A DNA stretch of 32,000 bases, taken from positions 444,137-476,136 of the forward strand of contig NZ_CP046640.1 of assembly GCF_017751145.1 (NCBI RefSeq). Direction: 5' to 3'. A program made the position numbers and the translations under genes. This stretch comes from Iocasia fonsfrigidae. Lineage in GTDB: Bacteria > Bacillota > Halanaerobiia > Halanaerobiales > DTU029. Below the pieces are notes generated by a model. The model was not told the DNA's origin, made no database searches, and worked only from the letters and a program-made list of their open reading frames with translations. This document shows positions 2,269 through 19,491 of the stretch, piece after piece; positions within the stretch are counted from its first letter, which is position 1; each line of letters opens with the position of its first letter.

Positions 2269-2306
2269 TAATTAGTATTGGGTATTTGATCTGGGGGGAA
2301 TTAAGA

Positions 2307-2640: not shown

Positions 2641-2752
2641 TGTTCGAAAAGGCATGAATAGGGGATTATATATCCCTGAACGAAGTTAAGGTGTTACCGT
2701 TGAGTGAAGGGATATATAATCCCCGGCGGTATATACTGATACTTTTCGAACA
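2641..2752 (+). repeat. Nested hairpin B in the mreB/mbl leader region
   Basis: The outer stem is TGTTCGAAAAG (2641-2651) with CTTTTCGAACA (2742-2752), 11/11 bp. The inner stem is GGGGATTATATATCCCT (2661-2677) with AGGGATATATAATCCCC (2708-2724), 17/17 bp. The loop is 30 nt and no T-run follows. Confidence 0.6.
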
Positions 2753-2790
2753 GGCTCTTAGAGTTATGCAAATGAGGGGAGTTGGATAAG

Positions 2791-3855: not shown

Positions 3856-5601
3856 TTGCGTTTTAAAATAAAACACTTTATGTTTGTATTATTGATTATG
3901 ATACTTATTAGTGGTTTTTCTGTTGCTGAAGAGATTATGCCCCTTACAGAGATAGAAGCAGGTATGCAGGGTAAAGCAAAGACGGTTTTTTACGGTGATA
4001 AGGTAGAGGAATTTCCGGTTGAAATAATAGATATTATGCCTGATCAGGGATTAAACAGGGATTTGATATTGATCAGGGCAGGTGGTGAAAAGATAGATGA
4101 AATAGGTGGGATAGCCGCTGGAATGAGCGGTAGCCCTGTCTATATTGAAGGCAAATTGATAGGTGCTATTGGTTATGGATGGAGTTTTAGCGAGGGCAAT
4201 TATGCCCTGGTAACACCTATTGAAGACATGCTGACCTTAATAAATAGTGAAGATAATGAAGGTATAGAGAATAGTAATTTAGCTGAAAGAGGGTTATCAA
4301 CCCCATTATTAGTAAGTGGTTTAACAGGTAGGTCTTTTGATAGATTAAAAAAAGACCTGGAGAGCCTTGGTTTAGAGCTTACTCCCTATAATGTTTCTAC
4401 TGGAGGCCGGGCAGAGTTTAAGACTAAGCTTGAACCAGGTAGTGCTGTTGCTGTACAACTGGTCAGGGGTGATATCAATATCGGTTCTATTGGAACAGTA
4501 AGCTATCTTGATGAAAGTGGTAATATTCTTGCCTTTGGTCACCCTTTTTTCAATAAAGGTGAGGTAGATTATATGTTAAGTAGTGCCACTATTAGGGGTG
4601 TTATCCCCAGTATGCAGCAGCCTTTTAAATTAGGCTCTCCGAATAAAGAACTTTTGGGGTCAATTACAGTTGATAGAGGCGCTGGTATTGCTGGAAAGCT
4701 TAAGAAATACTCCCGGGTAATTCCCCTGAGAATACGGGTCTTTGATCAGGAACGGGAAGTTGAAAACAAGGTAAATGCCCAGCTAATACGTGATGAAGAC
4801 CTGATAACCTCTCTAGTTACCAATATTGGTCTGGAATCACTTGATGCTACTTTAGATAGGATTGGTGAAGGTACAGCCAGGACGAGGTTTAAGATCACAG
4901 CTAATGGTCTGCCTGCCCTGTCTATAGAAAGAGAGAATATGTATTACAGCAGGCGTGATATTGCCTCTCTGGCCCTGCTAGATCTTTATCAGGTAATGGA
5001 TATAATAACTGGTAATCCCTTTCAGGAGGTTAATTTGATAGATATACAATATGATGTAGAGGTAGACCATACTGCCCAGGTTGCCCTGGTTCAGGAGGCT
5101 AGAGTTATTAATCAGGAGATTAGGCCAGGTGATCAGGTAGAAGTTGAGGTTATTCTTCATCCCTACCGGGGAGAGGTTTTTACTAAAAATGTAAAGATTG
5201 AGATACCTGAGGATACCCAACCCGGTATGGCCAGTATGGTAATAGATGGCGGATTTACCGGACAGTCATATCAGCATCTCCCAGAGGATTCTACCCAGGA
5301 GGATGATCTTAATCAGGCAGTTGTACAGGGATATAAGGATTTTCCTTCTATTATCGAGGATTATCTGGAAAAACCAAAAAATAATGATTTAATCATACAG
5401 GTCTATCCAGGATATACACCTGATGATATTGAAGCTGAAGATGAGCATAAACAGGGTCATGAAGCTGGAGATCAAGAAGATGAAAGGAAAGAAAATAAAG
5501 AGGAGTCACCGGAGAATACAGCTGCCCCTGATCAAGAACCCAAAGAAGAGGAAGAAAGAATAGATAATAGGGAAATAGAAGAGACAGAAATAAAGGAATA
5601 G
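3856..5601 (+). CDS. Secreted S55 (SpoIVB-type) serine peptidase domain protein with a long acidic C-terminal tail
   Basis: There is an N-terminal signal/TM segment. DKVEEFPVEIIDIMP...GGIAAGMSGSPVYIEGKLIGAIGYGW (GMSGSP at nt 4120-4137) matches the SpoIVB Ser block. GSIGTVSYLDESGNILAFGHPF (His codon at 4540-4542) matches the SpoIVB His block. I could not recognise a PDZ domain. The last 70 aa or so are a D/E/K-rich low-complexity tail. Confidence 0.7.
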   Translation: MRFKIKHFMFVLLIMILISGFSVAEEIMPLTEIEAGMQGKAKTVFYGDKVEEFPVEIIDIMPDQGLNRDLILIRAGGEKIDEIGGIAAGMSGSPVYIEGKLIGAIGYGWSFSEGNYALVTPIEDMLTLINSEDNEGIENSNLAERGLSTPLLVSGLTGRSFDRLKKDLESLGLELTPYNVSTGGRAEFKTKLEPGSAVAVQLVRGDINIGSIGTVSYLDESGNILAFGHPFFNKGEVDYMLSSATIRGVIPSMQQPFKLGSPNKELLGSITVDRGAGIAGKLKKYSRVIPLRIRVFDQEREVENKVNAQLIRDEDLITSLVTNIGLESLDATLDRIGEGTARTRFKITANGLPALSIERENMYYSRRDIASLALLDLYQVMDIITGNPFQEVNLIDIQYDVEVDHTAQVALVQEARVINQEIRPGDQVEVEVILHPYRGEVFTKNVKIEIPEDTQPGMASMVIDGGFTGQSYQHLPEDSTQEDDLNQAVVQGYKDFPSIIEDYLEKPKNNDLIIQVYPGYTPDDIEAEDEHKQGHEAGDQEDERKENKEESPENTAAPDQEPKEEEERIDNREIEETEIKE

Positions 5602-5736
5602 TTGAAACAGATTATGTATTGGAAGGAAACCTATCTCTAGATATTAATATAAAGGATATAAATAGTAAAAACACCCCTGACATAACAGAGGAAAGAGTAG
5701 AAAAAGGAGAATAGGGCTTAGGAATTTGTGTAAAAT

Positions 5737-5764
5737 AACCCTGGGGATTATCCTCAGGGTTTTC
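5737..5764 (+). terminator. Probable rho-independent terminator after the S55 peptidase gene
   Basis: AACCCTGGGG-ATTA-TCCTCAGGGTTTTCC is a GC-rich stem with one bulge, followed by a short T-run. Confidence 0.5.
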
Positions 5765-5853
5765 CATTAACTACCTGTCTAAATAGTTGATTTAATAGCC
5801 TAAGTATAATATTATGTAATATGGAAAGTTAGCTATTGGGGGGACAGTAATTT

Positions 5854-8800
5854 ATGAAAACAAAATCAATAATCTATCTGTCCTTACTGATGTTTTTTAT
5901 CCTGACTGCTGTTTTTATTATGAAGGTTTCAACAGAGATAATAGATCTGAAAGAAGAAATCATTAATTATATAGATGAGGTTTACCAACTTAAGATTGAA
6001 GTAGGTAGTATTGATTTCTGGTCATTTACTGCTCTGTCTTTATATGATACAGAGGTTTTGCTTGATCATGATAATATAAGTTTTTCTTCCCCGGAGGTAA
6101 AACTATATTATAATCCCCTGGAATTAATTTTCAGCCAGAAAAAGATTATTGATGGTATTAAACAGATTAAATTTATCAATCCTGTTCTTAATGTCAAAAA
6201 TCAAGCTACAGGGGATGCTGGTACAGTTGATCAGGTAATTAAGGATTATCTTCCTTCAGGGAAAAAGCCAGTACAGTTAATTGTTCAGGATGGTACTGTC
6301 CAGTATTCAGGTGAGGGACAGGAAATAAGGCTGGAAAAACTGGATCTGGCACTGCTTATTGATGAAGAGGGCTGGCAGGGTGACCTTAAAACAGGTTTTC
6401 TTGATTTAGCGAAATTAAGTAGTCCTCTGGAGAAAATCTTTAGTGAACAACAGGGGTCTATACAGAATTTAACAGGTCAGGGAAGTCTTGAGCTGATTTT
6501 TCAGGGTAAGGGGGTTGCTGTTCGGGATTATTCCGGCCGGCTGCTTCTTGATGGGGTTGAAGGGCTTATCTCCTGTACTGATTACCTGGATGATGAGGTG
6601 TTTAATGATTTAAGTGGAGAGATTCTATTTGATTCAGCCAGTCAGCAGCTGCAGTTAAACGGCCTCTATCTAAATTTTTTTAAAACAGCAGTACAGCTTA
6701 GCGGTAGTCTAGATTTTAGCAGAGATACCCCTGAGATATTTGCCAGGGTATATTCAAGTGATTTTAATCCTGAGAGAATAGATATCTTAAAGGAGTATCT
6801 ACCTATCAGTGGTACCGGGATGGTCGAATTATTAATAGCTGGTGATCTGTCATCACCTGAACTACAACTGGATTACTCCCTATCTGATGGTGAGCTATTT
6901 AATAGAGAACAGCCGTGGAAACAGGAGATTGCTGGTTTAGATACTGTAATGCGTTATCATGATGGTTTCTTATATCTGGACTATTTCAATCTTAATATAA
7001 ACCAGGAGAGCTATTTTTCTGCCTCTGGTCTAATTAAACAGGATAAACTGGAGTATAGTATTGACCTGCAGGGTAAAAATATTGACCTGGGTTTAGTGGA
7101 AGAATATCTGCCTGACTATAAGCTGCCAACTGCTACAGGGAAAATAGATATTAACAGCAGTATAAGTGGTCAGGGATTAGACCTTGATAGATTAAATCTT
7201 CTGGGGGATTTTAGGATTAATAATTCAGCTGTGAAAGACTATAGACTTGACCTGATTGAAGGTCAGTTCTGGTTATCCCAGAAGGCTTTGCTTATCCAGC
7301 AGGGGTTAGTAAAGACCCCTTATGGTAATATGAACTTCTCAGGGGAATTAAATTTACTTAATAAGAAACTGGCTTTTTCCTATGAGAACAGTCAACTGGA
7401 TTTATCTCTGTTAACCCCACTTTTAGATGACAAACTCTCTCTAAAAGGTCTGGCCAGTATCAAGGGTAGAGTAGATGGTTATCTAGATAAACCTGAGATG
7501 ACAGCCCGAATTTCTATAGATAATGGTATGCTGGATAAATACCAATTCAGCAATCTAAATTTCAGGGCAGAATATATTGAAGACAAGCTGTCAGTACCTG
7601 CTTTAAGCTGTGAATATCAGGGGGCGGCAGTAGAGGCCAGTGGTAACTTAATGCCTTCACTACAGGCCAGTATTATGATTGAGGATTTACCTTATCATGA
7701 TTTAGCTAAAATAAGTGGTATGTCAATACCACTGGAGGGCTTATTTGATTTATCATTGGGTATCAGCGGCAGTTTTACTTCACCCGAAATTAAAGGGGAG
7801 GTTTTTTCACAGGAGACATCTTTAGTATACCAGAATTTCTCATATTCACTTGATAGGCTAAGTGCTTTGTTTAGCTGGGGGGATAATACTCTGCTGCTTG
7901 AAGATCTTGACCTTCACAGAGACAGAACCCATCTGACAGCTGAAGGAGAGATTATAGAAGAGGAAATAAACCTTGATTTTATTTTGAATGAACTTGACTT
8001 TGAAGAGTATTTACCTGAGATGGCTTTAAAGGGAGATGCCAGCATTAAAGGAACTATGACAGGAAAACTAAGCAATCCGGAATTAAATGGACTAATAGTT
8101 GCTGATAGTATTATATATAATAATTATATGATTGATGGTCTGGTTGGTGAATTATCTTATAGTGATGATAAAATAATAATAACGAACTCTTATCTGCGCT
8201 GTGGTTCTGATGATTATAATATACACGGTAAGCTGACTAATCTAAGTAAGGATATAAAGCTAGACCTTATACTGGAGACAGAAAGAGGGAAGATTAAGGA
8301 CCTGCTAAACAGATATTATACCGGACTTCCTATTCCAGAAGACTATTATTTCAGTGGTAGTGTGGTAGTAGGTGGTTCAATTACTACCCCTGAGGCAGAG
8401 GTAGACCTCTCCTTTTTTGGGGCAGAGGAATCCCAGGGTACTGTTACTATGATCGGAGATATTAAAGATGGTTTTAATCTTAAATTAAAGGGGCAGGGGG
8501 TTGAGATAGAGCAGATACCAGCTATTATCGATAGGGATATTAACCTTAAGGGCAAACTGGACTTCCAGGGTGAAATCACCGGTAATTTTGATTCCTATCA
8601 ATTGAAACTGGCTACCTTTCTCCTGGATGCTAGTATAGGTAATAGTACTATCGAGAGTATTAAAGGTAATTTAAGCTTTACTCAGACAGGTCTTCTGTAT
8701 CTGGAGCAGGTTCTGACTGATTCAGCAGATAGGACGTTAACCTTTAGTGGGTACATACCTGTTAAAAAAACTGCTGGTGAATATGACCTCAAGGCAGATT

Positions 8801-10017
8801 TTCAGGGTTTTCCACTCCGGGTAGTGGGGGATTACTTTCCTTCCTTGCCCAGGATAAGGGGATTTGTCAATGGTAATATATCACTCAGTGGGCTAATTGA
8901 TGACCCGCAATTTAACGGTAGATTAGCCCTGGAGGGTGTTGGTTTTAATAGTGACTATCTAAAGATTTCCGGGCTACATGGTGAAGTGTTATTCTCAGGA
9001 GAGACTATTTCTATTCCTCGTTTAAAAGGTAAGTCTGGTAAGGGGGACATTATCATAGAGGGTAAGATCAGGCCCTTTAGCAGAGATGACAATTACCACC
9101 TCAGTATATATGGAGATGATATTCCCCTTGATTATGGTTCATTTGATGGAGAGATTGACCCCAGGCTTAAGATTATTGGTTCTTTTAGCAGACCATTTAT
9201 TCAGGGTGATATCATTACACATGATCTGGAGATAGGCATTCCAATCAAATGGCCGTCAGGAGATGCTAAGGGGGAAATTTATCTAGACCTCACCCTTTAT
9301 CCAGATGAAGATGTTTATTTAAGAAACAAGTATTTTGATATACTGATACAGAGTGGTAGTTTTCGCCTCCTAAATATTAATGGAAACCTTCAGTTTGAGG
9401 GGGAGCTTAGTAGTGAACAGGGGACCTTAAGCTATTACAACAATAAATTTTTTCTGGAAGAGGCTACTGCAGAGTTTAATAGGTATGAAGAATTACTCCC
9501 GAATTTAGATGTCAAGGCCTGGACCAGGATTGATGGTAACAGGATAGAGGTACAATTTAAAGGACTGCCTGGTCAGATGATAACTACCTTTACATCAGAG
9601 CCTACCCTGAGTGAAGAGGAAATAATGTCTTTACTAACCAGGTCTGGAGGCATTGGGGAGTTTGTGGCAGGTAATCTCAGTGGGGTTTTTAGTCAGGAGA
9701 TTTATCGCTATATACGAGACTATATTCAATTAGATATCTTAAAAGAGATAGAATTTGGGGTTAAGGAGGCCTTTAGTCTTGATGAATTTGAGATTGACAC
9801 CTATAATCTGGGGTTTGCTCAGGAGATGACTCTTTATCTAGGAGAATATTTTGGGGATGATATTTATTTACAGTATTCAACAACCCTGGGACCTGGTGGT
9901 AAGAGGGATAATCAGTTTTCATTAAAGTATTATCTAGATGACAATTTTATTATTAAGGGAGACCTATTTGAGGATAATGCTTATTCCATTGGTTTTGAGA
10001 CCGGATTTAACTTTTAA
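5854..10017 (+). CDS. tamB: TamB / AsmA-like translocation and assembly module protein (DUF490 C-terminus)
   Basis: 1387 aa with a single N-terminal TM anchor, a very long beta-rich repetitive body (repeated L.G.v.G.l..P motifs), and a DUF490-like C-terminus ending ...FSLKYYLDDNFIIKGDLFEDNAYSIGFETGFNF. It is encoded just upstream of bamA, which is the usual TamB context in lineages without TamA. Confidence 0.85.
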   Translation: MKTKSIIYLSLLMFFILTAVFIMKVSTEIIDLKEEIINYIDEVYQLKIEVGSIDFWSFTALSLYDTEVLLDHDNISFSSPEVKLYYNPLELIFSQKKIIDGIKQIKFINPVLNVKNQATGDAGTVDQVIKDYLPSGKKPVQLIVQDGTVQYSGEGQEIRLEKLDLALLIDEEGWQGDLKTGFLDLAKLSSPLEKIFSEQQGSIQNLTGQGSLELIFQGKGVAVRDYSGRLLLDGVEGLISCTDYLDDEVFNDLSGEILFDSASQQLQLNGLYLNFFKTAVQLSGSLDFSRDTPEIFARVYSSDFNPERIDILKEYLPISGTGMVELLIAGDLSSPELQLDYSLSDGELFNREQPWKQEIAGLDTVMRYHDGFLYLDYFNLNINQESYFSASGLIKQDKLEYSIDLQGKNIDLGLVEEYLPDYKLPTATGKIDINSSISGQGLDLDRLNLLGDFRINNSAVKDYRLDLIEGQFWLSQKALLIQQGLVKTPYGNMNFSGELNLLNKKLAFSYENSQLDLSLLTPLLDDKLSLKGLASIKGRVDGYLDKPEMTARISIDNGMLDKYQFSNLNFRAEYIEDKLSVPALSCEYQGAAVEASGNLMPSLQASIMIEDLPYHDLAKISGMSIPLEGLFDLSLGISGSFTSPEIKGEVFSQETSLVYQNFSYSLDRLSALFSWGDNTLLLEDLDLHRDRTHLTAEGEIIEEEINLDFILNELDFEEYLPEMALKGDASIKGTMTGKLSNPELNGLIVADSIIYNNYMIDGLVGELSYSDDKIIITNSYLRCGSDDYNIHGKLTNLSKDIKLDLILETERGKIKDLLNRYYTGLPIPEDYYFSGSVVVGGSITTPEAEVDLSFFGAEESQGTVTMIGDIKDGFNLKLKGQGVEIEQIPAIIDRDINLKGKLDFQGEITGNFDSYQLKLATFLLDASIGNSTIESIKGNLSFTQTGLLYLEQVLTDSADRTLTFSGYIPVKKTAGEYDLKADFQGFPLRVVGDYFPSLPRIRGFVNGNISLSGLIDDPQFNGRLALEGVGFNSDYLKISGLHGEVLFSGETISIPRLKGKSGKGDIIIEGKIRPFSRDDNYHLSIYGDDIPLDYGSFDGEIDPRLKIIGSFSRPFIQGDIITHDLEIGIPIKWPSGDAKGEIYLDLTLYPDEDVYLRNKYFDILIQSGSFRLLNINGNLQFEGELSSEQGTLSYYNNKFFLEEATAEFNRYEELLPNLDVKAWTRIDGNRIEVQFKGLPGQMITTFTSEPTLSEEEIMSLLTRSGGIGEFVAGNLSGVFSQEIYRYIRDYIQLDILKEIEFGVKEAFSLDEFEIDTYNLGFAQEMTLYLGEYFGDDIYLQYSTTLGPGGKRDNQFSLKYYLDDNFIIKGDLFEDNAYSIGFETGFNF

Positions 10018-10029
10018 AAGGAGATAGAG

Positions 10030-10626
10030 ATGAAGGAATATTTAAAAAAGATAAGGGATTTAAAATTACCTACATCTGAAGAAGAACAAGCCTTATGGTT
10101 TAGATATAAAAATGAGAATGAGCAGGAGGCCCGCCAGGAGTTGATTAGCTATTACCAGCCTCTGGTCTTTAAACTTGTCCAGCAGTTTAAGGCTGATCGG
10201 GGAGTATTTATGGACCTGATCCAGGAGGGCAATCTAGGGTTGATAGATGCTGTTGATTCCTATAGACCAGGATTTAATACCAGGTTTTCTACCTTTGCTG
10301 TTTATCATATCAGGGGTAGAATTATTGATTACCTTAATAAAGGTAGTAGGGCCAGAAAATTCCCTGTTATGGGAGATATCCTTCCTGAGAAACTGGAGGA
10401 AACTGTAGAAAGGTCAATACTGGCTGACAGGGTTAAAGAGCTTGTCAAAGGCTTACCCTCTAAGGAAAGACAGGTTATTAACAAGCGTTTCCTGGATAGT
10501 AAAAAGGCAGAACTGGCTGCTGCAGAAATGGGAATAAGCCTGTCTTACCTTTACCGCCTACAGAAAAAAGCCGTTAGAAGGCTTCGGGGTAAACTAGCTA
10601 CTTTTATTCATCAGTGGAATAAGTAA
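10030..10626 (+). CDS. Small sigma-70-family sigma factor (group-3/FliA-SigB-SigF-like regions 2 and 4, very short linker)
   Basis: Region 2 reads LISYYQPLVFKLVQQF...DLIQEGNLGLIDAVDSYRPGFNTRFSTFAVYHIRGRIIDYL. Region 4 HTH reads LPSKERQVINKRFLDSKKAELAAAEMGISLSYLYRLQKKAVRRLR. An RBS AAGGAG lies 13 nt after the tamB stop, so the gene is probably co-transcribed with tamB. Confidence 0.85.
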   Translation: MKEYLKKIRDLKLPTSEEEQALWFRYKNENEQEARQELISYYQPLVFKLVQQFKADRGVFMDLIQEGNLGLIDAVDSYRPGFNTRFSTFAVYHIRGRIIDYLNKGSRARKFPVMGDILPEKLEETVERSILADRVKELVKGLPSKERQVINKRFLDSKKAELAAAEMGISLSYLYRLQKKAVRRLRGKLATFIHQWNK

Positions 10627-10828
10627 ACATTGTACAGCAAACAGAAGTAAAACAGTACAAACTTGGTGTGTATTGCATATAATTACAGCTAAACAACTTA
10701 AATGGCTGTTTTTATAAAAATGTGAGCAGTCAAAAATATAAGGCTTAGAAGGATATTAATAGTAGAAGATAGGAGATTAGCTAAATTGAGTAATTATTAA
10801 AGGGGTGGGTTTAGGAGTGCTTGGGATT

Positions 10829-11197
10829 ATGAGACATATTTCTTATGCCCGTGATTGGCTGTGCCGTGCAGAAAAAAAGATTGAGTCTGGTGATCTGGTA
10901 GAAGGTGAGTTTTTTCTTTCCCTTGCCGAAGCAGAGACACGTAAGGCCTGGGAAAGGAGTTATTCTTCTCGAAATAGGTGGCCGTCCAGAAAATTTCCAC
11001 TGGCTCTTACTTTTAGTCTGTTCTTAATGGCTGCGATTGCTTTTGTTTTCTTTTTTAGAGGTGATCCCCAGCTGGAGCCGGTAGAATTAAAGCTGACCGA
11101 AGGGTATCAACAGAGTGTTCGACTGACAGACAGGGGTAATATACGTTTAATCAGTGTTGATCTATCTGTTAATAATAATTTGAATAGGGGGAAGTAA
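10829..11197 (+). CDS. Single-pass membrane protein of unknown function, translationally coupled to bamA (candidate sigma partner)
   Basis: The predicted layout is a cytoplasmic helical N-domain of about 60 aa, a TM segment (LALTFSLFLMAAIAFVFFF), and an external tail of about 40 aa. The start is ambiguous: GTG 10805, GTG 10817, or ATG 10829. I prefer ATG 10829, which has AGGAG 11 nt upstream. The TAA stop lies 1 nt before the bamA GTG. I recognised no family. Confidence 0.55.
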   Translation: MRHISYARDWLCRAEKKIESGDLVEGEFFLSLAEAETRKAWERSYSSRNRWPSRKFPLALTFSLFLMAAIAFVFFFRGDPQLEPVELKLTEGYQQSVRLTDRGNIRLISVDLSVNNNLNRGK

Positions 11198-11198
11198 T

Positions 11199-12908
11199 GT
11201 GAAGCATTTCTTGGTACTTATTATATTATGTAATCTTATATTATTTTCAGGTGTTACTATGGCAGAGAATGAGCTATTAGAGCAGAACCTTCAATTTATT
11301 ACAGCGATTGCCTTCGAAGGGAATGAAAGGGTCTCCGATGAGGAGATTAGATCCTTAATCAGTACTGAAGCTGGTGAATTGCTTGATGAAGAAAAAATAA
11401 AGAATGATATGCAGAAGCTCTATGATACTGGATATTTTCAGGATGTAAAGGTATCTTTTGAAGTCTATAATGCTGGCTTAAAGGCTATTTTTGAACTGTC
11501 TGAATACCCGCTTGTAGAAGATATTATTATTAAAGGTAATGAATCATATAGTGATCAGGAATTAATGAAGGAAATAAAACTGGTCAAAGGTGAGATATTA
11601 AACCATAATGCTATACTTGAAAGTAGAAAAGCTATTGAACGATTATATCAGGAGGCTGGTTATGTCCTGGCGGTTTTAAAAGATATTGACATAGATGATA
11701 ATGGTGTAGTTAGCTTTGAAATTAATGAGGGTTATTTAAATGAACTAATCATAGAGGGTAATGAAAAAACAAAGGATTTTGTTATCCGCCGTGAATTTGA
11801 TTTTAAAAAAGGTGATGTAATTAATATTAAAGAACTCCAGGAGTCCTTTCGTCAACTGGTCAGATTAAATTACTTTGAAGATATAAATCCTAAACTAGAA
11901 AGGGTAGATTTTGAGAAAAATACTGCTAATGTAATTCTGGAGGTAACTGAGGGTCGAACAGGCCGCTTTAATTTTGGTGTTTCTTATAGTACAGCAGAGG
12001 GAAAAGGCTGGGGTGGTTTTATTACAGTTCAGGAAAGAAACCTTTTTGGTAACGGCCAGACCCTTGGTTTTGACTGGGAATTTGGCAGCACAACAAATTA
12101 TGAGATTAACTTTTACGAACCATGGGTTTTGGGAACACCGACTTCTTTTGGAATAGGGGTTTATGATAAATCATATAGTTCTGAGGATTCTGTTAAAGGG
12201 GATTATGATGTTGATAAATCAGGGGGGAGTATTTCCCTGGGACATCCCCTGACAGAGGAATGGAATGGTAGAATTAAATTTAAGGTTGAAAAATCAAAGC
12301 TTGATTGGGAAGATAAGGAATATACAAAAGATGGTAAGACTTATGAAAATGACCCTGAAGATATTGATCTGCGTAGTATTACTCTACAGACCAGTAGAGA
12401 TACCACCAATCATCCCTTTAATCCTACTGGTGGTGGTATAGATGTTCTATCATTAGAATATGCCGGTCACTTCCTTGGTGGGGATGCCGATTTTGTTAAA
12501 TACAGGACTGATTTCAGGAGATTTTACAATGGTTTTAAAGGTAACCAGGCCTGGGCACTCCGCTTACAGACAGGTTTTAGTGATGGGGATCTGCCAGAGC
12601 TTGAAAAATATAGATTAGGTGGGTCAGAGACAATACGTGGTTATGATAAAGGTTCTTTTACTGGTGATGATATGCTTTTGGTAAATCTGGAGTATAGAAT
12701 ACCAATTACTGAGAATTTTACTGGTGTGCTCTTTGCTGATGGTGGTAATACCTGGGATTCTTACCGGGATATACAGCTTGATGACCTACACTATTCGACT
12801 GGTTTGGGAATTAGAATGGATACATTCTTAGGCCAGATTAGATTAGACTATGGTTTCAATGAAGATGGTGAAGGACAACCTCATTTCAGTATTGGTAATA
12901 CATTTTAG
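11199..12908 (+). CDS. bamA: Outer membrane protein assembly factor BamA (Omp85 family), short POTRA arm
   Basis: A signal peptide is present. POTRA-like repeats are I.F.GN..VSDEEIRSLI....G..L.....I..D...LY.TGYF.DV and IIIKGNE..SD.EL.... The Omp85 barrel carries RLGGSETIRGY and a terminal beta-signal HFSIGNTF. At 569 aa there is room for only about 3 POTRA domains. Confidence 0.9.
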   Translation: MKHFLVLIILCNLILFSGVTMAENELLEQNLQFITAIAFEGNERVSDEEIRSLISTEAGELLDEEKIKNDMQKLYDTGYFQDVKVSFEVYNAGLKAIFELSEYPLVEDIIIKGNESYSDQELMKEIKLVKGEILNHNAILESRKAIERLYQEAGYVLAVLKDIDIDDNGVVSFEINEGYLNELIIEGNEKTKDFVIRREFDFKKGDVINIKELQESFRQLVRLNYFEDINPKLERVDFEKNTANVILEVTEGRTGRFNFGVSYSTAEGKGWGGFITVQERNLFGNGQTLGFDWEFGSTTNYEINFYEPWVLGTPTSFGIGVYDKSYSSEDSVKGDYDVDKSGGSISLGHPLTEEWNGRIKFKVEKSKLDWEDKEYTKDGKTYENDPEDIDLRSITLQTSRDTTNHPFNPTGGGIDVLSLEYAGHFLGGDADFVKYRTDFRRFYNGFKGNQAWALRLQTGFSDGDLPELEKYRLGGSETIRGYDKGSFTGDDMLLVNLEYRIPITENFTGVLFADGGNTWDSYRDIQLDDLHYSTGLGIRMDTFLGQIRLDYGFNEDGEGQPHFSIGNTF

Positions 12909-12929: not shown

Positions 12930-13454
12930 ATGCAAAATTACAGGCCTAAATTTGCAGTAGTAATTGGATTAATATTAATAATTACTGGATTTCTGGTTTT
13001 GGTTTATCCACAAACTAATATAGCGGCAGGGGATGATGCTAAAGGCAGGATTGCCTATGTTGACCTCTGGACTGTTTTTAATGTTCATCCAGGTAAGGCT
13101 TCTGCCGAGGAGGAACTCAATATGCTTGCCCAGGATATGCAGGCTGAATTAGAGGAGAAAGCCAGTGACCTGCCAGAGGCTCAGCAGCAGGAAATGTTGC
13201 AGGAATACCAGACTAAATTGAGTCAGCAGGAGCAGGAATTAATCGAGGGTATTATTGATCAAATCAAAGCAGCTATAGTAGATGTAGCTGAGGAGAAAGA
13301 AGTTAAGTTAGTGGTTGATAAACAGAGTATTTTCTATGGTGGTTATGATTTGACCCAGGATGTCATAGATTATATTAATAAACAGCAGGGGTCATTACAG
13401 GAACCACTTGATGCAACAGAAGAAGAATTATCAGATGAATTAACTGGGGATTAA
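12930..13454 (+). CDS. skp: Skp/OmpH-family periplasmic chaperone
   Basis: It has an N-terminal hydrophobic signal. IAYVDLWTVFNVHPGKASAEEELN... is followed by a Q/E-rich coiled coil and then VKLVVDKQSIFYGGYDLTQDVIDYIN. This strand, helical tentacle, strand layout is the OmpH pattern. Confidence 0.8.
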   Translation: MQNYRPKFAVVIGLILIITGFLVLVYPQTNIAAGDDAKGRIAYVDLWTVFNVHPGKASAEEELNMLAQDMQAELEEKASDLPEAQQQEMLQEYQTKLSQQEQELIEGIIDQIKAAIVDVAEEKEVKLVVDKQSIFYGGYDLTQDVIDYINKQQGSLQEPLDATEEELSDELTGD

Positions 13455-13469
13455 AAAAGGAGGCAGGAG

Positions 13470-14432
13470 ATGTTGAAGGGAATATTCAGAATTTTGACAG
13501 TTGTGGCAGTTATACTTGGAATTGCTGGACTGGGTCTGTTTTATCTTGTTTCATCAGGGACGGCATCTCCTGAAAGTGTGAATATCAGGACAGTGCTGGA
13601 TAATTATTTAACAGATAATCCTGCTGGGCAACTGAGTGAGGAGATAAGCCTTAAGAGAGAAAACCTCCGCAATCAGCTGGCAAGGTTAAGAAATCAGGAA
13701 AAGCTCTTAAATAATAAAAAGGCTGCTCTGGAGCTAATTGTTGAAGAAGAACTGGCAGAAATCAGAGGAAAATATGAAGAAGAAATTCTTGATTTTAAAA
13801 AAGAACTGGAAGTTTCTTTTGAGAATTTTAGAGAAGAAAAAAGGCAGGAATATCAGGAAAAAATACTGGTTAAGAAGGAATCTTATGAGCAAAGACTTGA
13901 TGAATTAATCGAAGGATATAAGGATAAAAAAAGGCAGGAACTAGCAGATTATCAGCAGCAGCTACTTGATAATTACCATAAGGAAACTTTAAATTACCGT
14001 CTTAAACTCCTGGCTCTGGAGCTTAGTGAGGAAGAAGAGAGGGCTTATAAGGATAAAATAACTGGCCTGGAGCAGAGTCAGGAGGAAGCGGTCAAGGCTA
14101 AAGAAGATCAAATGAATGAGAGTCTTCAGGAAGAAACCAGCCGCTTAAGACAGGAATTTGACGAGGACTTCCTTGAGCTGCAGGAGAAAATGGAACAGGA
14201 GATGAAGCGTGAGATAAACAGTAAACTGCTTTCTAATGAGCAGGCATTGGAGGGTTTTATTGCTGAACAGGAAGTGCTGCTAAATGAGGAAATGGTACAA
14301 AGGCGTAGGGAATTAAGTGAACGAAGCAAAGAAGAGATTGTATTACTGGAGAATTTAGTCAGGGAGATAAGGAATGATTATCTTACCCTCCAGTCACAAA
14401 TTGCTAAACTGGAGAAGGAAGTGATTAAATAG
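13470..14432 (+). CDS. Membrane-anchored, very long E/K/Q-rich coiled-coil protein (Skp-like N-terminus only)
   Basis: An N-terminal TM/signal (ILTVVAVILGIAGLGLFYLV) is followed by about 280 aa of almost uninterrupted heptad-like charged sequence. The Skp C-terminal strand motif is missing. The gene is wedged between two skp-like genes, and its stop abuts the next start (14432/14433). Confidence 0.55.
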   Translation: MLKGIFRILTVVAVILGIAGLGLFYLVSSGTASPESVNIRTVLDNYLTDNPAGQLSEEISLKRENLRNQLARLRNQEKLLNNKKAALELIVEEELAEIRGKYEEEILDFKKELEVSFENFREEKRQEYQEKILVKKESYEQRLDELIEGYKDKKRQELADYQQQLLDNYHKETLNYRLKLLALELSEEEERAYKDKITGLEQSQEEAVKAKEDQMNESLQEETSRLRQEFDEDFLELQEKMEQEMKREINSKLLSNEQALEGFIAEQEVLLNEEMVQRRRELSERSKEEIVLLENLVREIRNDYLTLQSQIAKLEKEVIK

Positions 14433-14876
14433 ATGTTAAAAAAGATTATTTTGTTAGGTATCAGTATATCGTTTGTCTTACTGGCTGGTTGTACCTCGCG
14501 CTCACCTGAGATTGCGGTACTGGATATAGAAGAAGTACTGGCCAGAAGTAGAAGAGCTCAGGAATTGCAGGAGGAACTGCTTAATATAGGTAATACCCTG
14601 GAAGAAGAATACAGTCAGCAAGAGGATGAAGAAGAAGACCAGAACCATCTAGAACGGGTTTATCAGGAATACCTTAGTAATAAACAGAGATTAGAGAACA
14701 GTTTTAATGAAGAAGTAAAAGTGGTTATTGAGGAAATAAGAAAGGATAAAAATATAGACACAGTTTTATATAAAGACAGTGTTTATTATGGTGGTCTCGA
14801 TATTACTGAAAAGCTGGTTGAAATGCTTGATAGCAAATATGATGAGGAAGAAGGTAGTGATAATGACAGAGAATGA
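14433..14876 (+). CDS. Skp/OmpH-like lipoprotein
   Basis: A lipobox VLLAGC follows the signal peptide. IAVLDIEEVLARSRRAQELQEEL... then a coiled coil, then IDTVLYKDSVYYGGLDITEKLVEMLD, give the same layout as the 12930 gene. Confidence 0.7.
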   Translation: MLKKIILLGISISFVLLAGCTSRSPEIAVLDIEEVLARSRRAQELQEELLNIGNTLEEEYSQQEDEEEDQNHLERVYQEYLSNKQRLENSFNEEVKVVIEEIRKDKNIDTVLYKDSVYYGGLDITEKLVEMLDSKYDEEEGSDNDRE

Positions 14877-15903
14877 GGGTCTTAGTATTACTGAACTAGC
14901 CCGGCGGGTTAATGGTAAAGTGCTGGGTGACCCGGCCTATCTTATATATGGTGTTTCCGGGGTTAGTGAGAGTACAGCTGAGACTATTACTTTTGCCGAA
15001 ACAGAGCAATACCTCTCCGAGGCTTTAAAGTCAAAAGCCGGGGCTGTAATTGTGCCTGATGGTTTTACAGCTAAAGGGAAGAATATGATTGTAGTTAAAA
15101 AACCGCGTCTGGCTTTTGCCAGAATAGCTGCTGTTTTTGCCCCGAATGTTTTTTATAGGCCGGGGATAGACCCGACATCGACAATTGCTGATTCGGTTGT
15201 AATTGGAGAAAATGTCTCTATCCATCCCTATGTAGTGATTGATGAGGGGGCTGAAATAGCTGACCATGTAATCCTGGCCCCTGGTGTTTATATTGGTGCC
15301 GGGGTAAAGGTGGGAGAGAGTAGTATACTTCACCCTGGAGTTGTAGTCGAATATGACACAGTAATCGGCAAAAAGGTTATGATCCATAGTGGAACAGTGA
15401 TTGGTTCAGATGGCTATGGTTTTGTGACTGACCAGGACGGCCACCATAAAATACCCCAGCTGGGGAAGGTAATTATTGAAGATGATGTAGAGATAGGGGC
15501 CAATGTGACTATTGACCGGGGGACAAGCGGTCCTACTGTTATCGGCAGAGGGACCAAGACAGATAATCTTATCCAATTAGCTCATAATGTTCAAATTGGT
15601 GAAGAAAACCTACTGGTGGCTCAGGTGGGTATCGCTGGTAGTAGTAAGACTGGAAGAAGGGTTACACTTGGCGGCAAAACCGGTGTTGTAGGTCACCTGG
15701 AGATAGGGGATAATACTACTGTTGCTTCTGCTAGTGTAATAACTAAAGACACCCCATCAGGTGTTTTTTATTCGGGCAGCCCAGCCCAGGATCATAAAAA
15801 GGAATTACGTGAACAGGCTGCCAGGCGAAAAATGCCTCAGCTTTTAAAGAGGATAAGTAAGTTGGAGAAGAGGATAGGAGAATTAGAAAAGAAACTTAAT
15901 TAA
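14863..15903 (+). CDS. lpxD: UDP-3-O-(3-hydroxyacyl)glucosamine N-acyltransferase LpxD
   Basis: LSITELARRVNGKVLGD..., a long left-handed beta-helix of hexapeptide repeats, the GSDGYGF block and the IGDNTTV..ASVITKD tail are typical of LpxD. I prefer the ATG at 14863 (RBS GAGGAAGAAGG), which overlaps the previous stop by 14 nt. The ORF-track start at 14779 adds 28 residues read from the upstream gene. Confidence 0.9.
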   Translation: MTENEGLSITELARRVNGKVLGDPAYLIYGVSGVSESTAETITFAETEQYLSEALKSKAGAVIVPDGFTAKGKNMIVVKKPRLAFARIAAVFAPNVFYRPGIDPTSTIADSVVIGENVSIHPYVVIDEGAEIADHVILAPGVYIGAGVKVGESSILHPGVVVEYDTVIGKKVMIHSGTVIGSDGYGFVTDQDGHHKIPQLGKVIIEDDVEIGANVTIDRGTSGPTVIGRGTKTDNLIQLAHNVQIGEENLLVAQVGIAGSSKTGRRVTLGGKTGVVGHLEIGDNTTVASASVITKDTPSGVFYSGSPAQDHKKELREQAARRKMPQLLKRISKLEKRIGELEKKLN

Positions 15904-16137: not shown

Positions 16138-16209
16138 CATGTTTTGTTTAATTTAGCGATTATAAATATTCCAGTATTACTTAAATATACCAATAAAGGG
16201 GAAATAGAT

Positions 16210-16818
16210 GTGAGAAGATATGTAGTAGGATTTCTTTTTTTAGTAGTATTAGTGAATGTAGCTGGGAGTGTTATGGCTGTGGACAGGCTTTTGGAGATGC
16301 CGACAGCGGGGTTGATTCATGGTGATGTATTAGTTCGCGGAGAGATAATTCCGGGTTCGCACAGGAATATTGAGGGAGTTTTTGCTCTGGCTGACAGGGT
16401 TCAGTTGGGTGTTGTTGGTAATTATCTGGATAAGGATGATGAGCTGGAGACTGCTGGTAGTCTAAAGCTTCTGTTATTTGATGAGAAGGATGGTTTTCCT
16501 TCAGTTAGTATAGGGGCTAGAGAGAAAGATTTTTATTTTGTAATGAGCAAAAATCTTGGTCATGATATTAGGGCACACCTGGGGATAGGCAACGGGGAAT
16601 TTGATGGTTTGTTTCTTGGTTTTAATAAACTGATCAACCCGGTGGCTGTCCAGACTTCTTCTTCAACAGGTGTCCCCCTTCCCATTAATCTGATGGCGGA
16701 ATATGCTAATCGACAGGTTAATCTTGGTGTCAGGGTTTATTTCCGTGAAGCGATAGCTGTTGATGCCGGGTTAATGGATTTTGAGAAGGTAAAATTAGGG
16801 ATGAATTATAGTTTTTAA
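16210..16818 (+). CDS. Small predicted outer-membrane beta-barrel protein, family unknown
   Basis: I prefer the GTG at 16210 (RBS AAAGGGG), which gives 202 aa. A signal peptide MRRYVVGFLFLVVLVNVAGSVMA is present. Alternating hydrophobic strands (VNLGVRVYF, IAVDAGLMDF) and a C-terminal beta-signal KLGMNYSF ending in Phe support a barrel. Confidence 0.55.
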   Translation: MRRYVVGFLFLVVLVNVAGSVMAVDRLLEMPTAGLIHGDVLVRGEIIPGSHRNIEGVFALADRVQLGVVGNYLDKDDELETAGSLKLLLFDEKDGFPSVSIGAREKDFYFVMSKNLGHDIRAHLGIGNGEFDGLFLGFNKLINPVAVQTSSSTGVPLPINLMAEYANRQVNLGVRVYFREAIAVDAGLMDFEKVKLGMNYSF

Positions 16819-17116: not shown

Positions 17117-17142
17117 ATTTGTTAGATAGGGGTGACAGATAT

Positions 17143-19491
17143 ATGTTTTGGATGAAAACTGCTTTCAGGAAAGATATCTTTTTACTGATGGCTGCTGCTA
17201 TTCTGCTGGGGGTTATCCTGGCTCTGGCTGGGGGTTATCTCGCTGATAATTATTTTGCTAATATGGTCAGCGGTCTTATTGGTGATTCTGGAGAATATGA
17301 CCTTTTGTTTACTATCTCCAGTGATAAGGAAGATATCGCTATAGAGCAGATTAAAAATATAGCTGCTGATACTCTCCCGGGTTCTTCTTTTAAGACAGGA
17401 CCTAAGGTGGCAGGGAGTAGTAATTACTTATTGAAAATACCTGATAAATATAAGAATGAAGAGGTATATGTTAATCTGGGCAAATATTTCTCTGATATCC
17501 CTGGGTTAATGAGCAAGACTATCATGACAGAACCGAAACTGTCTATCAGAGGTTTCAGGGGGGATACTCTGCCGGTTATTAGACCACTTATAGCTGAGAT
17601 AGAGGGAATAGACTTTATCTATCCTAGTAGTGATGGCCTTGATATTATTGTAAAAAAACCGGAGTTTCTTACTGAAGTTAAGAAAGAGATAAATAGTATT
17701 CTGAGTAATTATCATATCCTGGAGGTCAGATATCCCCTCAACCAGCACCCGTCTAACCTCGGCCAGTTGAGGGGAGAGGTTGTTGAACTGGTAGAGGGTA
17801 ACCTTGATGAGGTTATTGATGTGACGATCAGTAATGAGTCAGATCGGGTTTCTCTTTTGACCAGTTTAAAACAGATGAAGACTTTTCTGATGTCCTATGC
17901 TACTAAAGTGCTTATTAGTGATCTTGAAAATAGTGAGGCTGTTCTGGAAGGGAGTACCCTGCTGGCCAGTAATGAAGATGGTGAGCAATTTGTCCTGGAG
18001 GTAATCAGTAATACTGATCAGCAGGTCATTGCTCTGGTTCAGGAGGGGAGTATTAATAAACCCATTTCTCTGGAGGTTTATTTTCAGGACTATGGGGATG
18101 AGGTAAAATACCTGGGTAAAGGCATAGTAGATAACCCGCGCCAGGAGCTGGCTGATGCCCTGGAACAACTTAATGAAATAGCCCCTAAACTGGAGGGTTT
18201 CCTGGAACAGAGTGAACAGCTTGTTGAGTTTAGTAATATGCTCAGTGAGGATTTAGCGGGGATAAATGATGGTTTAGGTCAACTGGAAAATACCAGTCAG
18301 AAACTGAGCAGTTCTCTAGAAGAATGGCAGCAGGAGGGGCTGTCAAACTTTCTGTCTGAGTTACTGGGTATCCTTGATGATATTAAGAAAAATACAGGTG
18401 ATATTACAGATATTCAGCGGGAGCTGGTTATGACCAGTAATAATCTAAAAGAAGGTGCTGCACTGATTGAAGAAAAGATAGCCTATGTGCCGCGTAGTAA
18501 CGGTATGTATCAGCAGTTAGATGAACTGAAAGATATCTTTCTACGGCTTTCTGAAGGTTTAGATGATAATTATGACCTGGTGGCCATGAGACTGGCAGAT
18601 ATGGATCCGGTTCTAAGTTCTATTGGGAGCTGGGAGGAAAAGATTGCTTCACTACTCAAGGTTGAGGAGACCTTAAATAGTGGGGCGAACTGGCAGGAGA
18701 TCGAAGGGATTATTGCAGACATTGATCAGACTGCCAGGATTATAGATGCCAGTCAATTACAGGATAAGCTGACATCTATTCAGGAATTACTACAGGACTT
18801 AAATACCAACCGCTTACCTGTTGTTTTGAATCAACTCTCTTATATTCAGAATTCATTACCTGATCTTGAAGAATCTGAGATTGTTGAGACGATTAATTTG
18901 ATTGATAGTTATATAGCTGGTCAGGTGATTCCAGGTGATCAGATTCAACTGTTAATTAAAGGAAAATATAATAGCAAGGGGCTTGTTAATAAGATAGAAG
19001 GGGTTGTAAACAACCCGACTGTTACCTATATAGAGATGGATGCCGGGGTTTTACAGCCCAATACACGGGGGGAGATTTTTAATGTCTTAAACCAGGTCAG
19101 GGCTGTTATTTCAACAATTGTTGCTTTTGTATTTACTATACTGGTAATGATTATGGATCAATCATTGATTATAAGTACACTGAGGCTTAATGGCAGCAGG
19201 GGATATTTTTATGGTTTTGTAAGTGGGGGTTTAATCTTTAGTTTGATCTGCCTGCTGAGTGGGATAGATTTTCCTTATCTTAATTTTAGTACAGAATTTA
19301 TTGTCGGTGGTTTGTCAGGTGTTTTGATCGCATTTTTATCTAAGATGCTTAATCCAGTAGATAGAGAAGAATGGGAGGCAGGTAAGGCTCTGGGTTTTTC
19401 CACAGCAGAGATAATGCATGAGATTATTATACCGGCTGGTAAACCTGGATTACTCTACCTAATGAATTACCCCAGAATTATTTTTAAATAA
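17143..19491 (+). CDS. Atypical ABC-transporter membrane component: TM1, extracytoplasmic domain of about 610 aa, 3 TM helices, C-terminal EAA coupling loop
   Basis: I prefer the ATG at 17143, because the TTG at 17119 lies upstream of the predicted TSS. TM1 is IFLLMAAAILLGVILALAGGYLA. The large soluble region has a helical L..G / L...L heptad-like stretch of about 250 aa (LSEDLAGINDGLGQLENTSQKLSSSLEEW...). Three C-terminal TMs follow. Then EAGKALGFSTAEIMHEIIIP (nt 19375-19434) fits EAA-x3-G-x9-I-x-LP. Only 18 residues follow the motif. Confidence 0.6.
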   Translation: MFWMKTAFRKDIFLLMAAAILLGVILALAGGYLADNYFANMVSGLIGDSGEYDLLFTISSDKEDIAIEQIKNIAADTLPGSSFKTGPKVAGSSNYLLKIPDKYKNEEVYVNLGKYFSDIPGLMSKTIMTEPKLSIRGFRGDTLPVIRPLIAEIEGIDFIYPSSDGLDIIVKKPEFLTEVKKEINSILSNYHILEVRYPLNQHPSNLGQLRGEVVELVEGNLDEVIDVTISNESDRVSLLTSLKQMKTFLMSYATKVLISDLENSEAVLEGSTLLASNEDGEQFVLEVISNTDQQVIALVQEGSINKPISLEVYFQDYGDEVKYLGKGIVDNPRQELADALEQLNEIAPKLEGFLEQSEQLVEFSNMLSEDLAGINDGLGQLENTSQKLSSSLEEWQQEGLSNFLSELLGILDDIKKNTGDITDIQRELVMTSNNLKEGAALIEEKIAYVPRSNGMYQQLDELKDIFLRLSEGLDDNYDLVAMRLADMDPVLSSIGSWEEKIASLLKVEETLNSGANWQEIEGIIADIDQTARIIDASQLQDKLTSIQELLQDLNTNRLPVVLNQLSYIQNSLPDLEESEIVETINLIDSYIAGQVIPGDQIQLLIKGKYNSKGLVNKIEGVVNNPTVTYIEMDAGVLQPNTRGEIFNVLNQVRAVISTIVAFVFTILVMIMDQSLIISTLRLNGSRGYFYGFVSGGLIFSLICLLSGIDFPYLNFSTEFIVGGLSGVLIAFLSKMLNPVDREEWEAGKALGFSTAEIMHEIIIPAGKPGLLYLMNYPRIIFK

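Follow-up and report, generated by a model that had tools for sequence, protein, structure and literature searches.

A sigma factor and a single-pass membrane protein conserved between tamB and bamA in Iocasia fonsfrigidae and other diderm Terrabacteria: a candidate regulatory module of outer-membrane assembly

In the outer-membrane (OM) gene cluster of Iocasia fonsfrigidae (Halanaerobiales), a gene for a small sigma factor and a gene for a short membrane protein, here called X, lie between tamB and bamA, which raises the question of what such a pair is doing at this place. The stretch of DNA analysed, hereafter the window, comprises 32,000 nucleotides (nt) of the RefSeq assembly GCF_017751145.1 (contig NZ_CP046640.1, positions 444,137 to 476,136 of the forward strand), and its open reading frames (ORFs), together with their Pfam and NCBIfam matches, identify it as a cluster of OM genes from a diderm Firmicute.

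The answer proposed here is that the two genes form a dedicated regulatory module within the OM assembly locus. It is hardly in doubt that the sigma factor is a real, dedicated one, functionally tied to the β-barrel assembly machinery (BAM) and to TAM, the module of translocation and assembly. The combined model, in which the sigma factor would serve a boxed promoter in front of X and bamA and would itself be controlled by X, is on balance favoured. The evidence for each part, and the alternatives, are set out below.

The sigma factor and its genomic setting

The initial annotation, made from the DNA letters alone, had described a sigma factor of 198 amino acids with regions 2 and 4 and almost no region 3, a description which is fully borne out. 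The Pfam scan found Sigma70_r2 (PF04542, 6.5e-17) at residues 38-107 and Sigma70_r4 (PF04545, 4.2e-7) at residues 140-186, both above the gathering score, and no match to region 3 (PF04539). The AlphaFold model (predicted local distance difference test, pLDDT, 85) agrees, with a sigma-2 domain at residues 1-108, a disordered stretch at 107-122 and a sigma-4 domain at 120-197, the whole architecture being that of regions 1.2-2.4, a disordered linker and region 4. In an alignment of 30 family members (A1), the linker between sigma-2 and sigma-4 counts 15-45 variable residues. Invariant or nearly so in the same alignment are DLIQEG..GL in region 2.2, F..A..I.GR in region 2.4 (which in the window reads FSTFAVYHIRGRIIDYL, of the FliA/WhiG/SigB type) and the stretch S.SY.Y.L.K (S..Y..L.K) in region 4.2, from which binding to core RNA polymerase and recognition of a conserved promoter are to be expected.

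The closest relatives of the protein were sought in several ways. Among the NCBIfam models, the generic TIGR02937 is the only one whose cut-off is passed. The best specific models (RpoH, SigB/F/G, SigK, SigG, RpoS, WhiG) reach 57-86 bits against cut-offs of 190-457 (RpoH 85.7 against 323, SigBFG 82.3 against 234, SigK 76.5 against 252, SigG 76 against 372, WhiG 72.4 against 343 and FliA_WhiG, TIGR02479, 57.4 against 190), and they align to the N-terminal ~100 residues only, that is, to regions 1.2-2.4. The protein thus belongs to no known sporulation or flagellar equivalog, an assignment which would have spoken against a new regulator. When a profile of the 30 members was compared with the sequences of the PDB, SigA, WhiG, RpoS, FliA, RpoH and SigF came out on top, and Foldseek ranked sigma-32, SigD, SigB, sigma-S, SigA, SigH, WhiG and FliA first for the model; no sigma factor of the extracytoplasmic function (ECF) group was found among the best 60 PDB profile matches or the top 50 fold matches. 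The three rankings uphold the early impression that region 2 stands nearer to FliA, SigB and SigF than to ECF factors. Moreover, the N-terminus can be aligned to region 1.2-2.4 of RpoH, RpoS and SigA, and matches to PF00140 (region 1.2) were found in relatives.

Membership of the sigma-70 family follows from regions 2 and 4, from the conserved residues and from the sigma-2 and sigma-4 folds of the model. With the ECF group the protein shares the reduction to these two domains; it does not share the absence of region 1.2, ECF factors are not its nearest relatives, and there is no autoregulated anti-sigma gene in the same operon with an anti-sigma domain or zinc motif. As to group 3, the sigma-3 domain is missing and the cut-off of no named model is reached. 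The family is also sharply delimited: the search returned 46 matches with E-values from 3.5e-116 to 2.8e-24, followed by a jump to 5e-14, and 75 representatives at E<=1e-30 were present in a library clustered at 50% identity. The search with the Phascolarctobacterium protein gave 1052 matches, the best 120 of which are near-identical and add no taxonomic breadth. Judged by sequence, the factor is a member of a distinct and bounded non-ECF family outside every named group-3 family, derived from the group 1-3 lineage by loss of the sigma-3 domain.

The genomic setting of this family is equally constant. A scan of metagenome contigs for the DNA pattern encoding the family-specific peptide YQPLVFK[LIV] gave 75 distinct sigma loci, which were annotated with local hidden Markov models (HMMs) for the sigma factor, the TamB C-terminus, BamA and the N-terminal domain of X; the denominators below are the loci whose contig reaches far enough. 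A scan of genome contigs with the sigma alignment yielded mostly generic sigma factors, owing to the universal DLIQEG pattern, and, among the matches listed, one useful locus, that of Phascolarctobacterium (L004). The gene directly upstream of the sigma gene is tamB in 67 of 67 loci, X follows downstream in 57 of 57, and bamA is next after X in 44 of 44. Since the loci had been chosen by the sigma factor alone, this synteny is not an artefact of selection. The sigma factor and X co-occur in every locus examined, and both are, on this comparative evidence, real conserved genes and not chance ORFs.

The order tamB-sigma-X-bamA, with ompH...lpxD behind it, is found in Halothermothrix orenii (L001) and Natronospora (L084), on an ENA contig whose sigma factor is 40% identical, on a high-GC (guanine plus cytosine) JGI contig, and, among the Negativicutes, in Phascolarctobacterium and in Allisonella histaminiformans, a genus of the Veillonellaceae according to the NCBI taxonomy. 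It also occurs in metagenome-assembled genomes (MAGs) labelled Bacteroidota, Armatimonadota and candidate division GAL15 (= Ca. Sysuimicrobiota), although the phylum labels of MAGs are the depositors' own and may be wrong. The arrangement, which the initial annotation had proposed to look for in other Halanaerobiales and in Negativicutes, is hence kept in every related locus examined, and extends to MAGs labelled as other Terrabacterial phyla. By these comparisons the pair is far older and more widespread than an oddity of the Halanaerobiales.

Veillonella parvula, a model and genetically tractable diderm Firmicute, appears to lack the pair: in strain DSM 2008, TolC, TamB and BamA bear the consecutive tags Vpar_0525 to Vpar_0527 (PMC5491611), and the two genes therefore seem to be absent, as judged from the tags and not from the sequence. 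The pair is kept in Allisonella and Phascolarctobacterium though apparently missing in V. parvula.

In the window, the sigma gene starts directly 3' of tamB, as first noted: its ATG at 10030 is separated by 12 nt from the tamB TAA, which ends at 10017, and is preceded by the ribosome-binding site AAGGAG. The two genes are probably co-transcribed. The distance from the sigma gene to X differs between lineages. It amounts to 125-250 nt (with one outlier of 307 nt) in low-GC lineages, namely the Halanaerobiales, the Negativicutes and their relatives, and ranges from a 4-nt overlap to ~190 nt in high-GC lineages (0.63-0.74 GC). In 11 high-GC loci the gap is -4 to 11 nt, which suggests that the sigma factor and X are co-translated; translational coupling is probable there from the gene layout.

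The membrane protein X and the box upstream of it

Three in-frame starts are available for X in the window: GTG 10805 (130 amino acids), GTG 10817 (126) and ATG 10829 (122). The second is preferred because it matches a 126-residue NCBI homologue as well as the homologues of H. orenii and Natronospora at their N-termini; X is 98% identical to this hypothetical protein of 126 residues, from Halocella sp. SP3-1 (Halanaerobiales). Depending on the start chosen, 190-202 nt separate X from the sigma stop, and its own stop (TAA, 11195-11197) lies 1 nt ahead of the bamA start (GTG 11199). The size of 120-130 residues, the gap of 180-200 nt and the 1-nt junction given beforehand agree with these figures.

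The predicted structure of X consists of helices at residues 2-19 and 23-49 (pLDDT ~90), a transmembrane (TM) helix at 56-77 and a low-confidence tail; the model was built from a 4-sequence alignment and is of moderate quality. A sequence search with X returned 3 relatives only, because the protein evolves too fast, and its homologues were recovered through gene position and a local HMM of the N-terminal domain. All 62 distinct homologues so obtained have one TM helix, beginning at residues 57-91, and in 58 of them lysine and arginine are more frequent before this helix than after it; the topology is therefore N-in. The external tail comprises 44-176 residues and is variable and of low complexity. 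Conservation is confined to the first ~45 residues, which are cytoplasmic and carry the motif hI..A..WL.+AE...G.L.L.LAEAE, and a basic stretch lies between this conserved hairpin and the TM helix. X has a single cysteine and no HxxxCxxC motif. The model and the 62 homologues thus sustain the original picture of an N-in single-pass protein with a helical cytoplasmic domain, a short external tail and no zinc motif. An N-in single pass, a conserved cytoplasmic part and a gene adjacent to that of a sigma factor are the features of membrane anti-sigma factors, and X is a candidate anti-sigma factor or sigma partner.

A search for motifs upstream of the operons of the cluster had been suggested from the outset, and it revealed a conserved -10-like box concentrated in front of X and bamA. 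Nearly all sigma-X gaps, otherwise unalignable, carry this short box 19-90 nt upstream of X. It reads (T)GAyTATAyA in Negativicutes-type loci, GATATT(A/G) in five of five Halanaerobiales-type loci and GGATA(C/G/T)TA (e.g. GGATACTA) in high-GC loci; the copy in the window is GGATATTA. For GAyTATAyA, 47 copies were counted on both strands of 395 kb, 26 of them inside the sigma-X gap, the other 21 equalling the expectation from shuffled sequences for the whole 395 kb set. Likewise, the 288 kb of high-GC loci contain 30 copies of GATA[CGT]TA, 19 of them at <=130 nt upstream of X and 2 at 133 nt, against a shuffle expectation of ~17 across all 288 kb.

Many high-GC loci have the box lying across the final codons of the sigma gene (Gly-Tyr-stop). 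Thus, in L085 (10640-10651), L101, L108, L123, L130 and L132 the gene ends in GGA TAC TAA/TAG, which is exactly the box, so that an embedded DNA signal seems to determine how the protein ends at its C-terminus. In L087, L117, L118, L129, L196 and L197 the box is intergenic; since it is intergenic in some loci and within the sigma gene in others, its conservation is that of a DNA element and not of a protein sequence. The plus strand of the high-GC set has only three further copies, all of which lie just upstream of the next OM genes. The one in L087 precedes an ompH gene, and those in L201 and L123 lie 6-8 nt before the start of a conserved secreted protein of 420-450 residues encoded after bamA, a distance which suggests a leaderless transcript. 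The extra copy in L123, which no sigma coding sequence overlaps, repeats the GCGCACC-N17-GGATACTA found before X within the same clade.

A tentative -35-like element, GTCAAAA, of weak information content, is located 16 nt upstream of the box in the window. The same position is occupied by GTCAAAA in Natronospora, GACATAA in L003, GTCGTAT in H. orenii and GACACAT in L145, and Negativicutes-type loci have tGAAAA 15-16 nt upstream of the box. In the X promoter, ~19 nt separate the two elements. Since the box is specific to the start of X-bamA, the bamA operon is the likeliest target of the sigma factor.

Other features of the locus

The features of the window, and the positions of a protein recurring behind bamA in other loci, are collected in Table 1. 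The genes skp/ompH, the 320-residue protein, skp/ompH and lpxD (12930-15903) probably form the remainder of the X-bamA operon, and the order skp/ompH...lpxD downstream of bamA recurs in L001, L084, L004, L086, L087 and L208. The mechanically called lpxD ORF, with its GTG at 14779, overlaps the preceding ompH by ~100 nt, and the actual start is probably an internal codon further downstream. The 320-residue protein between the two skp/ompH genes is rich in glutamate and lysine, has a coiled-coil look and an N-terminal TM or signal segment, and has no Pfam match; its place is taken by proteins of similar size in H. orenii, Natronospora, Allisonella and L208. In the lipopolysaccharide (LPS) part of the cluster, the ORFs of 790 and 224 residues have no Pfam match at E<=1e-5; in L208, a 597-residue protein without Pfam matches lies between lpxD and lpxC.

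Table 1. Positions of genes and DNA elements in the window, and of the post-bamA protein in other loci
Feature	Position	Strand	Remarks
cstA	362-2041	minus	
spoIIID	2229-2564		
mbl	2782-3819		
SpoIVB-like S55 serine peptidase	3856-5601	+	Pfam Peptidase_S55 5.5e-12
tamB	5854-10017	+	AsmA-like, inner-membrane-anchored bridge protein; Pfam TamB 2.4e-25
sigma gene	10030-10626	+	198 amino acids, sigma-70 family
weak hairpin and U-run	10685-10714	+	7-bp stem, 11-nt loop, UUUUU; minimum-energy and centroid folds
tentative -35-like element GTCAAAA	10729-10735	+	16 nt upstream of box; weak information content
-10-like box GGATATTA	10751-10758	+	59 nt upstream of X GTG 10817; candidate X-bamA promoter
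X	10817-11197	+	single-pass membrane protein, 126 amino acids
bamA	11199-12908	+	Omp85 with POTRA; TIGR03303 314 bits against cut-off 297; Pfam Omp85, POTRA
ompH (skp), first copy	12930-13454	+	Pfam OmpH
coiled-coil protein	13470-14432	+	320 amino acids
ompH (skp), second copy	14433-14876	+	Pfam OmpH
lpxD	14779-15903	+	Pfam LpxD
ORF without assignment	16144-16818		224 amino acids, 3' of lpxD
ORF without assignment	17119-19491		790 amino acids, 3' of lpxD
ABC ATPase, lpxC, fabZ, lpxA, lpxI, lpxB, lptC, lptA, lptB, lptF/G	after 17119-19491		in this order
DUF3084 protein, RuvX-like protein, SLH-domain protein	3' of lptF/G		
post-bamA protein (~390-450 amino acids), L003	13407-14663		
post-bamA protein, L004	11306-12577		
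post-bamA protein, L086	11419-12720		
post-bamA protein, L087	11607-12902		
post-bamA protein, L208	13367-14542		
post-bamA protein, L123 and L201	6201-7470 and 13059-14379		oriented coordinates

The post-bamA protein of ~390-450 residues is encoded directly 3' of bamA in most lineages and has no Pfam match; its copies in L123 and L201 carry a signal peptide, and it is absent from that position in the window, H. orenii and Natronospora. On the other side of the pair, the gene for the S55 peptidase lies upstream of tamB in the window and in L001, L003, L084, L085, L087 and L208 (Halanaerobiales and high-GC lineages), is duplicated in L085 and L208, and is replaced by mlaEFD-tolC in the Negativicutes. 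In V. parvula, the S55 homologue Vpar_0521 has been discussed as an OM protein without an assigned role (PMC5491611). This peptidase was considered as a site-1 protease for X, an idea which co-occurrence does not support, for V. parvula keeps Vpar_0521 while apparently lacking the pair; any involvement of the peptidase in the system is speculative.

The intergenic spacers contain further elements. The weak hairpin after the sigma gene possibly ends the tamB-sigma transcript, although it stays below the criteria of the terminator scan; comparable stem-loops after the sigma gene were seen by eye in other loci. Taken as a whole, the sigma-X gap shows no unusual degree of structure (z = +0.5), and the Rfam search of the window returned nothing; that the gap contains a riboswitch or small RNA is therefore unlikely. 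The 11-mer AGAAGTAAAAC, found just after the sigma stop (10643-10653) and in the gap of L004, is probably a chance occurrence, as it is absent from the other gaps shown. In the spacer between the S55 gene and tamB (5602-5853), GATTATGTA occurs at 5610 and GATATTAATA, a 10/10 match to the X box, at 5640-5649; a strong hairpin, AACCCTGGGGATTATCCTCAGGGTT, follows at ~5735-5763, and then the sigma-A-like promoter region of tamB. No matching -35 element was found for this GATATTAATA copy and a hairpin lies downstream of it, so it is not taken for a second box; it is probably due to chance, or else may mark the start of a short transcript ending at the hairpin. The promoter upstream of tamB, after the hairpin, is sigma-A-like, reading TTGAAT-N17-TATAAT in Natronospora and TTGAAT-N17-TATGAT in H. 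orenii. Finally, GATTATATA occurs twice in inverted orientation in the spoIIID-mbl spacer, at 2663-2671 (+) and 2712-2720 (-), ~40 nt apart and upstream of mbl (2782).

A possible regulatory circuit and its alternatives

How the elements might work together can be outlined as follows. The sigma factor would be made together with TamB and would steer RNA polymerase to the boxed promoter of X and bamA and, in some lineages, also to the next OM genes. The cytoplasmic hairpin of X would hold the sigma factor at the membrane, as an anti-sigma factor does, and X being the first product of the sigma-dependent operon, a negative feedback is proposed. The external tail of X, or the degradation of X, would report the condition of the periplasm or of OM assembly, releasing the sigma factor. 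The module would thereby be the Terrabacterial functional counterpart of RpoE-RseA, made from unrelated parts. That X binds and controls the sigma factor seems reasonably probable, while the chances that the boxed promoter is the target of the sigma factor are judged about even. A role of the pair in sensing envelope stress or in controlling OM biogenesis is what we infer from the whole.

Several observations weigh against this proposal. X resembles no anti-sigma family in sequence or fold: the Pfam scan of 10 homologues at E<=1 gave scattered chance matches only and no zf-HC2, RskA, RseA or RsgI_N; its cytoplasmic domain has no similarity to those of known anti-sigma factors (RseA, ZAS/class I, RsgI_N, RskA); the profile search of the PDB returned nothing relevant; the best Foldseek hit in the PDB (E 0.37) led to unrelated helical proteins; and the two-helix hairpin is too generic for identification. 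As regards the box, GGATATTA has 3 copies in the window against 2.7 expected, which without comparative data is indistinguishable from chance. It is assigned to the sigma factor by position alone and, being A/T-rich, may be read in the Halanaerobiales as the TAnnnT of sigma-A. The -35 element is weak, and its spacing to the box varies by 2-3 nt among lineages. The box is missing from the 11 high-GC loci whose genes abut, and the target promoter of that clade must therefore lie elsewhere; extra box copies were not found in that clade either. In the loci scanned, a search upstream of tamB and of the S55 gene found no box, so that there is no sign of classical autoregulation. On the plus strand of the sigma-X gap, a generic promoter and terminator scan of 9500-11700 gave no signal exceeding that of shuffled sequence, and no stress input was identified for the pair.

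Part of these points may be explained if the box is simply the housekeeping sigma-A promoter of the bamA operon, the regulon of the sigma factor lying elsewhere and its position being a historical accident. We regard this as unlikely, though still a serious contender. The A/T-rich box with TGAAAA or GTCAAA upstream of it does resemble TTGACA...TATAAT, no further copies beyond chance occur near other operons in the low-GC loci, and the 11 abutting loci do without it. Nevertheless, the box hardly varies in genomes of ~63-74% GC, where it reads GGATACTA or GGATAGTA and so departs from TAnnnT, and the spacing of ~19 nt differs from the canonical 17 nt of the neighbouring tamB promoter. The -10 element of sigma-28 is GCCGATAA, which contains GATA, and the FliA/WhiG-like region 2.4 would by analogy fit a GATA-containing -10 such as this one. 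A different doubt concerns X, which may be no antagonist of a genuine regulatory sigma factor at all, but an inner-membrane accessory of TamB or BamA (for example an anchor or adaptor) or a positive tether, whose gene would simply head the bamA operon. The lipoproteins BamB-E are lacking in diderm Firmicutes (PMC10665443), and further accessory factors are therefore to be expected; besides, X always stands directly before bamA, with its stop abutting or overlapping the bamA start, and resembles no anti-sigma family. It is, however, the cytoplasmic part of X that is conserved, the part facing TamB and BamA being variable and of low complexity. X is, in addition, seen next to this sigma factor only, with overlapping or abutting genes in the 11 high-GC loci, and V. 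parvula, by its locus tags, has TamB and BamA with neither member of the pair, which suggests that both were lost together and are dispensable for the machinery. An accessory role is accordingly held to be improbable.

The remaining alternative replaces envelope stress by development: a sporulation or germination sigma factor would turn on OM genes as the OM of the spore is rebuilt. Several members bear the JGI label 'sporulation-specific sigma factor', the locus is flanked in the Halanaerobiales by spoIID, spoIIID, mbl and the SpoIVB-like peptidase, and there is weak partial similarity to SigK, SigG, SigE and SigF. With 64-77 bits against cut-offs of 252-457, all sporulation models nonetheless fall far short, and members of the family occur in MAGs labelled Armatimonadota and Sysuimicrobiota and in Phascolarctobacterium and Allisonella, genera that are not known to form spores; in the Negativicutes, moreover, the flanking genes are mlaEFD and tolC and not sporulation genes. 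A developmental role is thus very improbable.

Comparison with known systems helps to define what the proposed sigma-X module would be. To RpoE-RseA of the Proteobacteria it is close in its proposed logic, that of a small alternative sigma factor and a single-pass N-in partner whose cytoplasmic domain holds it. The targets of sigma-E include bamA, skp and LPS genes, and the OM-biogenesis target set proposed here resembles them. The parts, in contrast, are not homologous: the present factor is non-ECF, with region 1.2 and a region 2.4 of group-3 type; X lacks the folds of RseA and of anti-sigma domains; the genes are set within the tamB-bamA locus and not in an autoregulated rpoE-rseABC operon; and no input of the DegS/RseP type was identified. 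FliA and WhiG (sigma-28 group) are among the closest relatives of the sigma-2 domain by sequence and fold, with an IRGxIxDxL-type region 2.4, and the candidate -10 box shares GATA with their GCCGATAA. Both, however, possess a sigma-3 domain, their cut-offs are far from being reached, and the context here is OM assembly and not flagella or development. RsiG is a helical-hairpin anti-sigma factor, but RsiG and FlgM are soluble, whereas X is membrane-anchored and unrelated to them in sequence.

Among short membrane-bound anti-sigma factors, CnrY of the CnrH-CnrY system (class II) has, like X, a short two-helix cytoplasmic segment, one TM helix and a short external tail. CnrH, though, is an ECF factor, no similarity between X and CnrY was detected in sequence or fold, and CnrY works with the periplasmic sensor CnrX, no counterpart of which is encoded at the present locus. 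SigI-RsgI of Bacilli and Clostridia likewise pairs a two-domain Firmicute sigma factor with a single-pass N-in anti-sigma factor having a small N-terminal sigma-binding domain. Yet X has no Pfam match to RsgI_N even at E<=1 and its external part is a low-complexity tail and not a sensing module, while the sigma factor has an ordinary Sigma70_r4 in place of the SigI-type C-terminal domain.

Full-text literature searches, together with the key papers on diderm Firmicutes and their supplements, yielded no description of the pair. The sigma factor is unmentioned in the papers dealing with the OM cluster, namely the eLife 2016 study (PMC5007114), the OM proteome of V. parvula (PMC5491611) and the Mla/TamB study (PMC10665443). 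Modules of the sigma/anti-sigma type are already known; these searches suggest that what is new here is the sigma subfamily, the partner family and their fixed genomic setting.

The regulation of OM biogenesis outside the Proteobacteria is, to our knowledge, essentially unknown. A sigma factor and a membrane partner fixed between tamB and bamA offer a concrete candidate regulator of BAM/TAM expression in the Terrabacteria. X may represent a new anti-sigma fold, the sigma factor exemplifies a sigma-3-less factor arising from the group 1-3 sigma factors instead of the ECF lineage, and the pair provides a marker with which the history of the OM can be traced in the Bacillati. More tentatively, and with doubt outweighing confidence, tamB-sigma-X-bamA may be an ancestral circuit of diderm Terrabacteria (Halanaerobiales, Negativicutes, Armatimonadota-like and Sysuimicrobiota-like lineages), which would couple the production of TamB to the transcription of bamA, skp and other OM genes through a sigma-3-less, group-3-derived sigma factor and a new class of hairpin anti-sigma factor whose tail reads OM assembly, possibly inherited from the diderm ancestor of the Bacillati and lost in Veillonella. 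If this is true, the circuit would be an independent invention of the RpoE-RseA logic.

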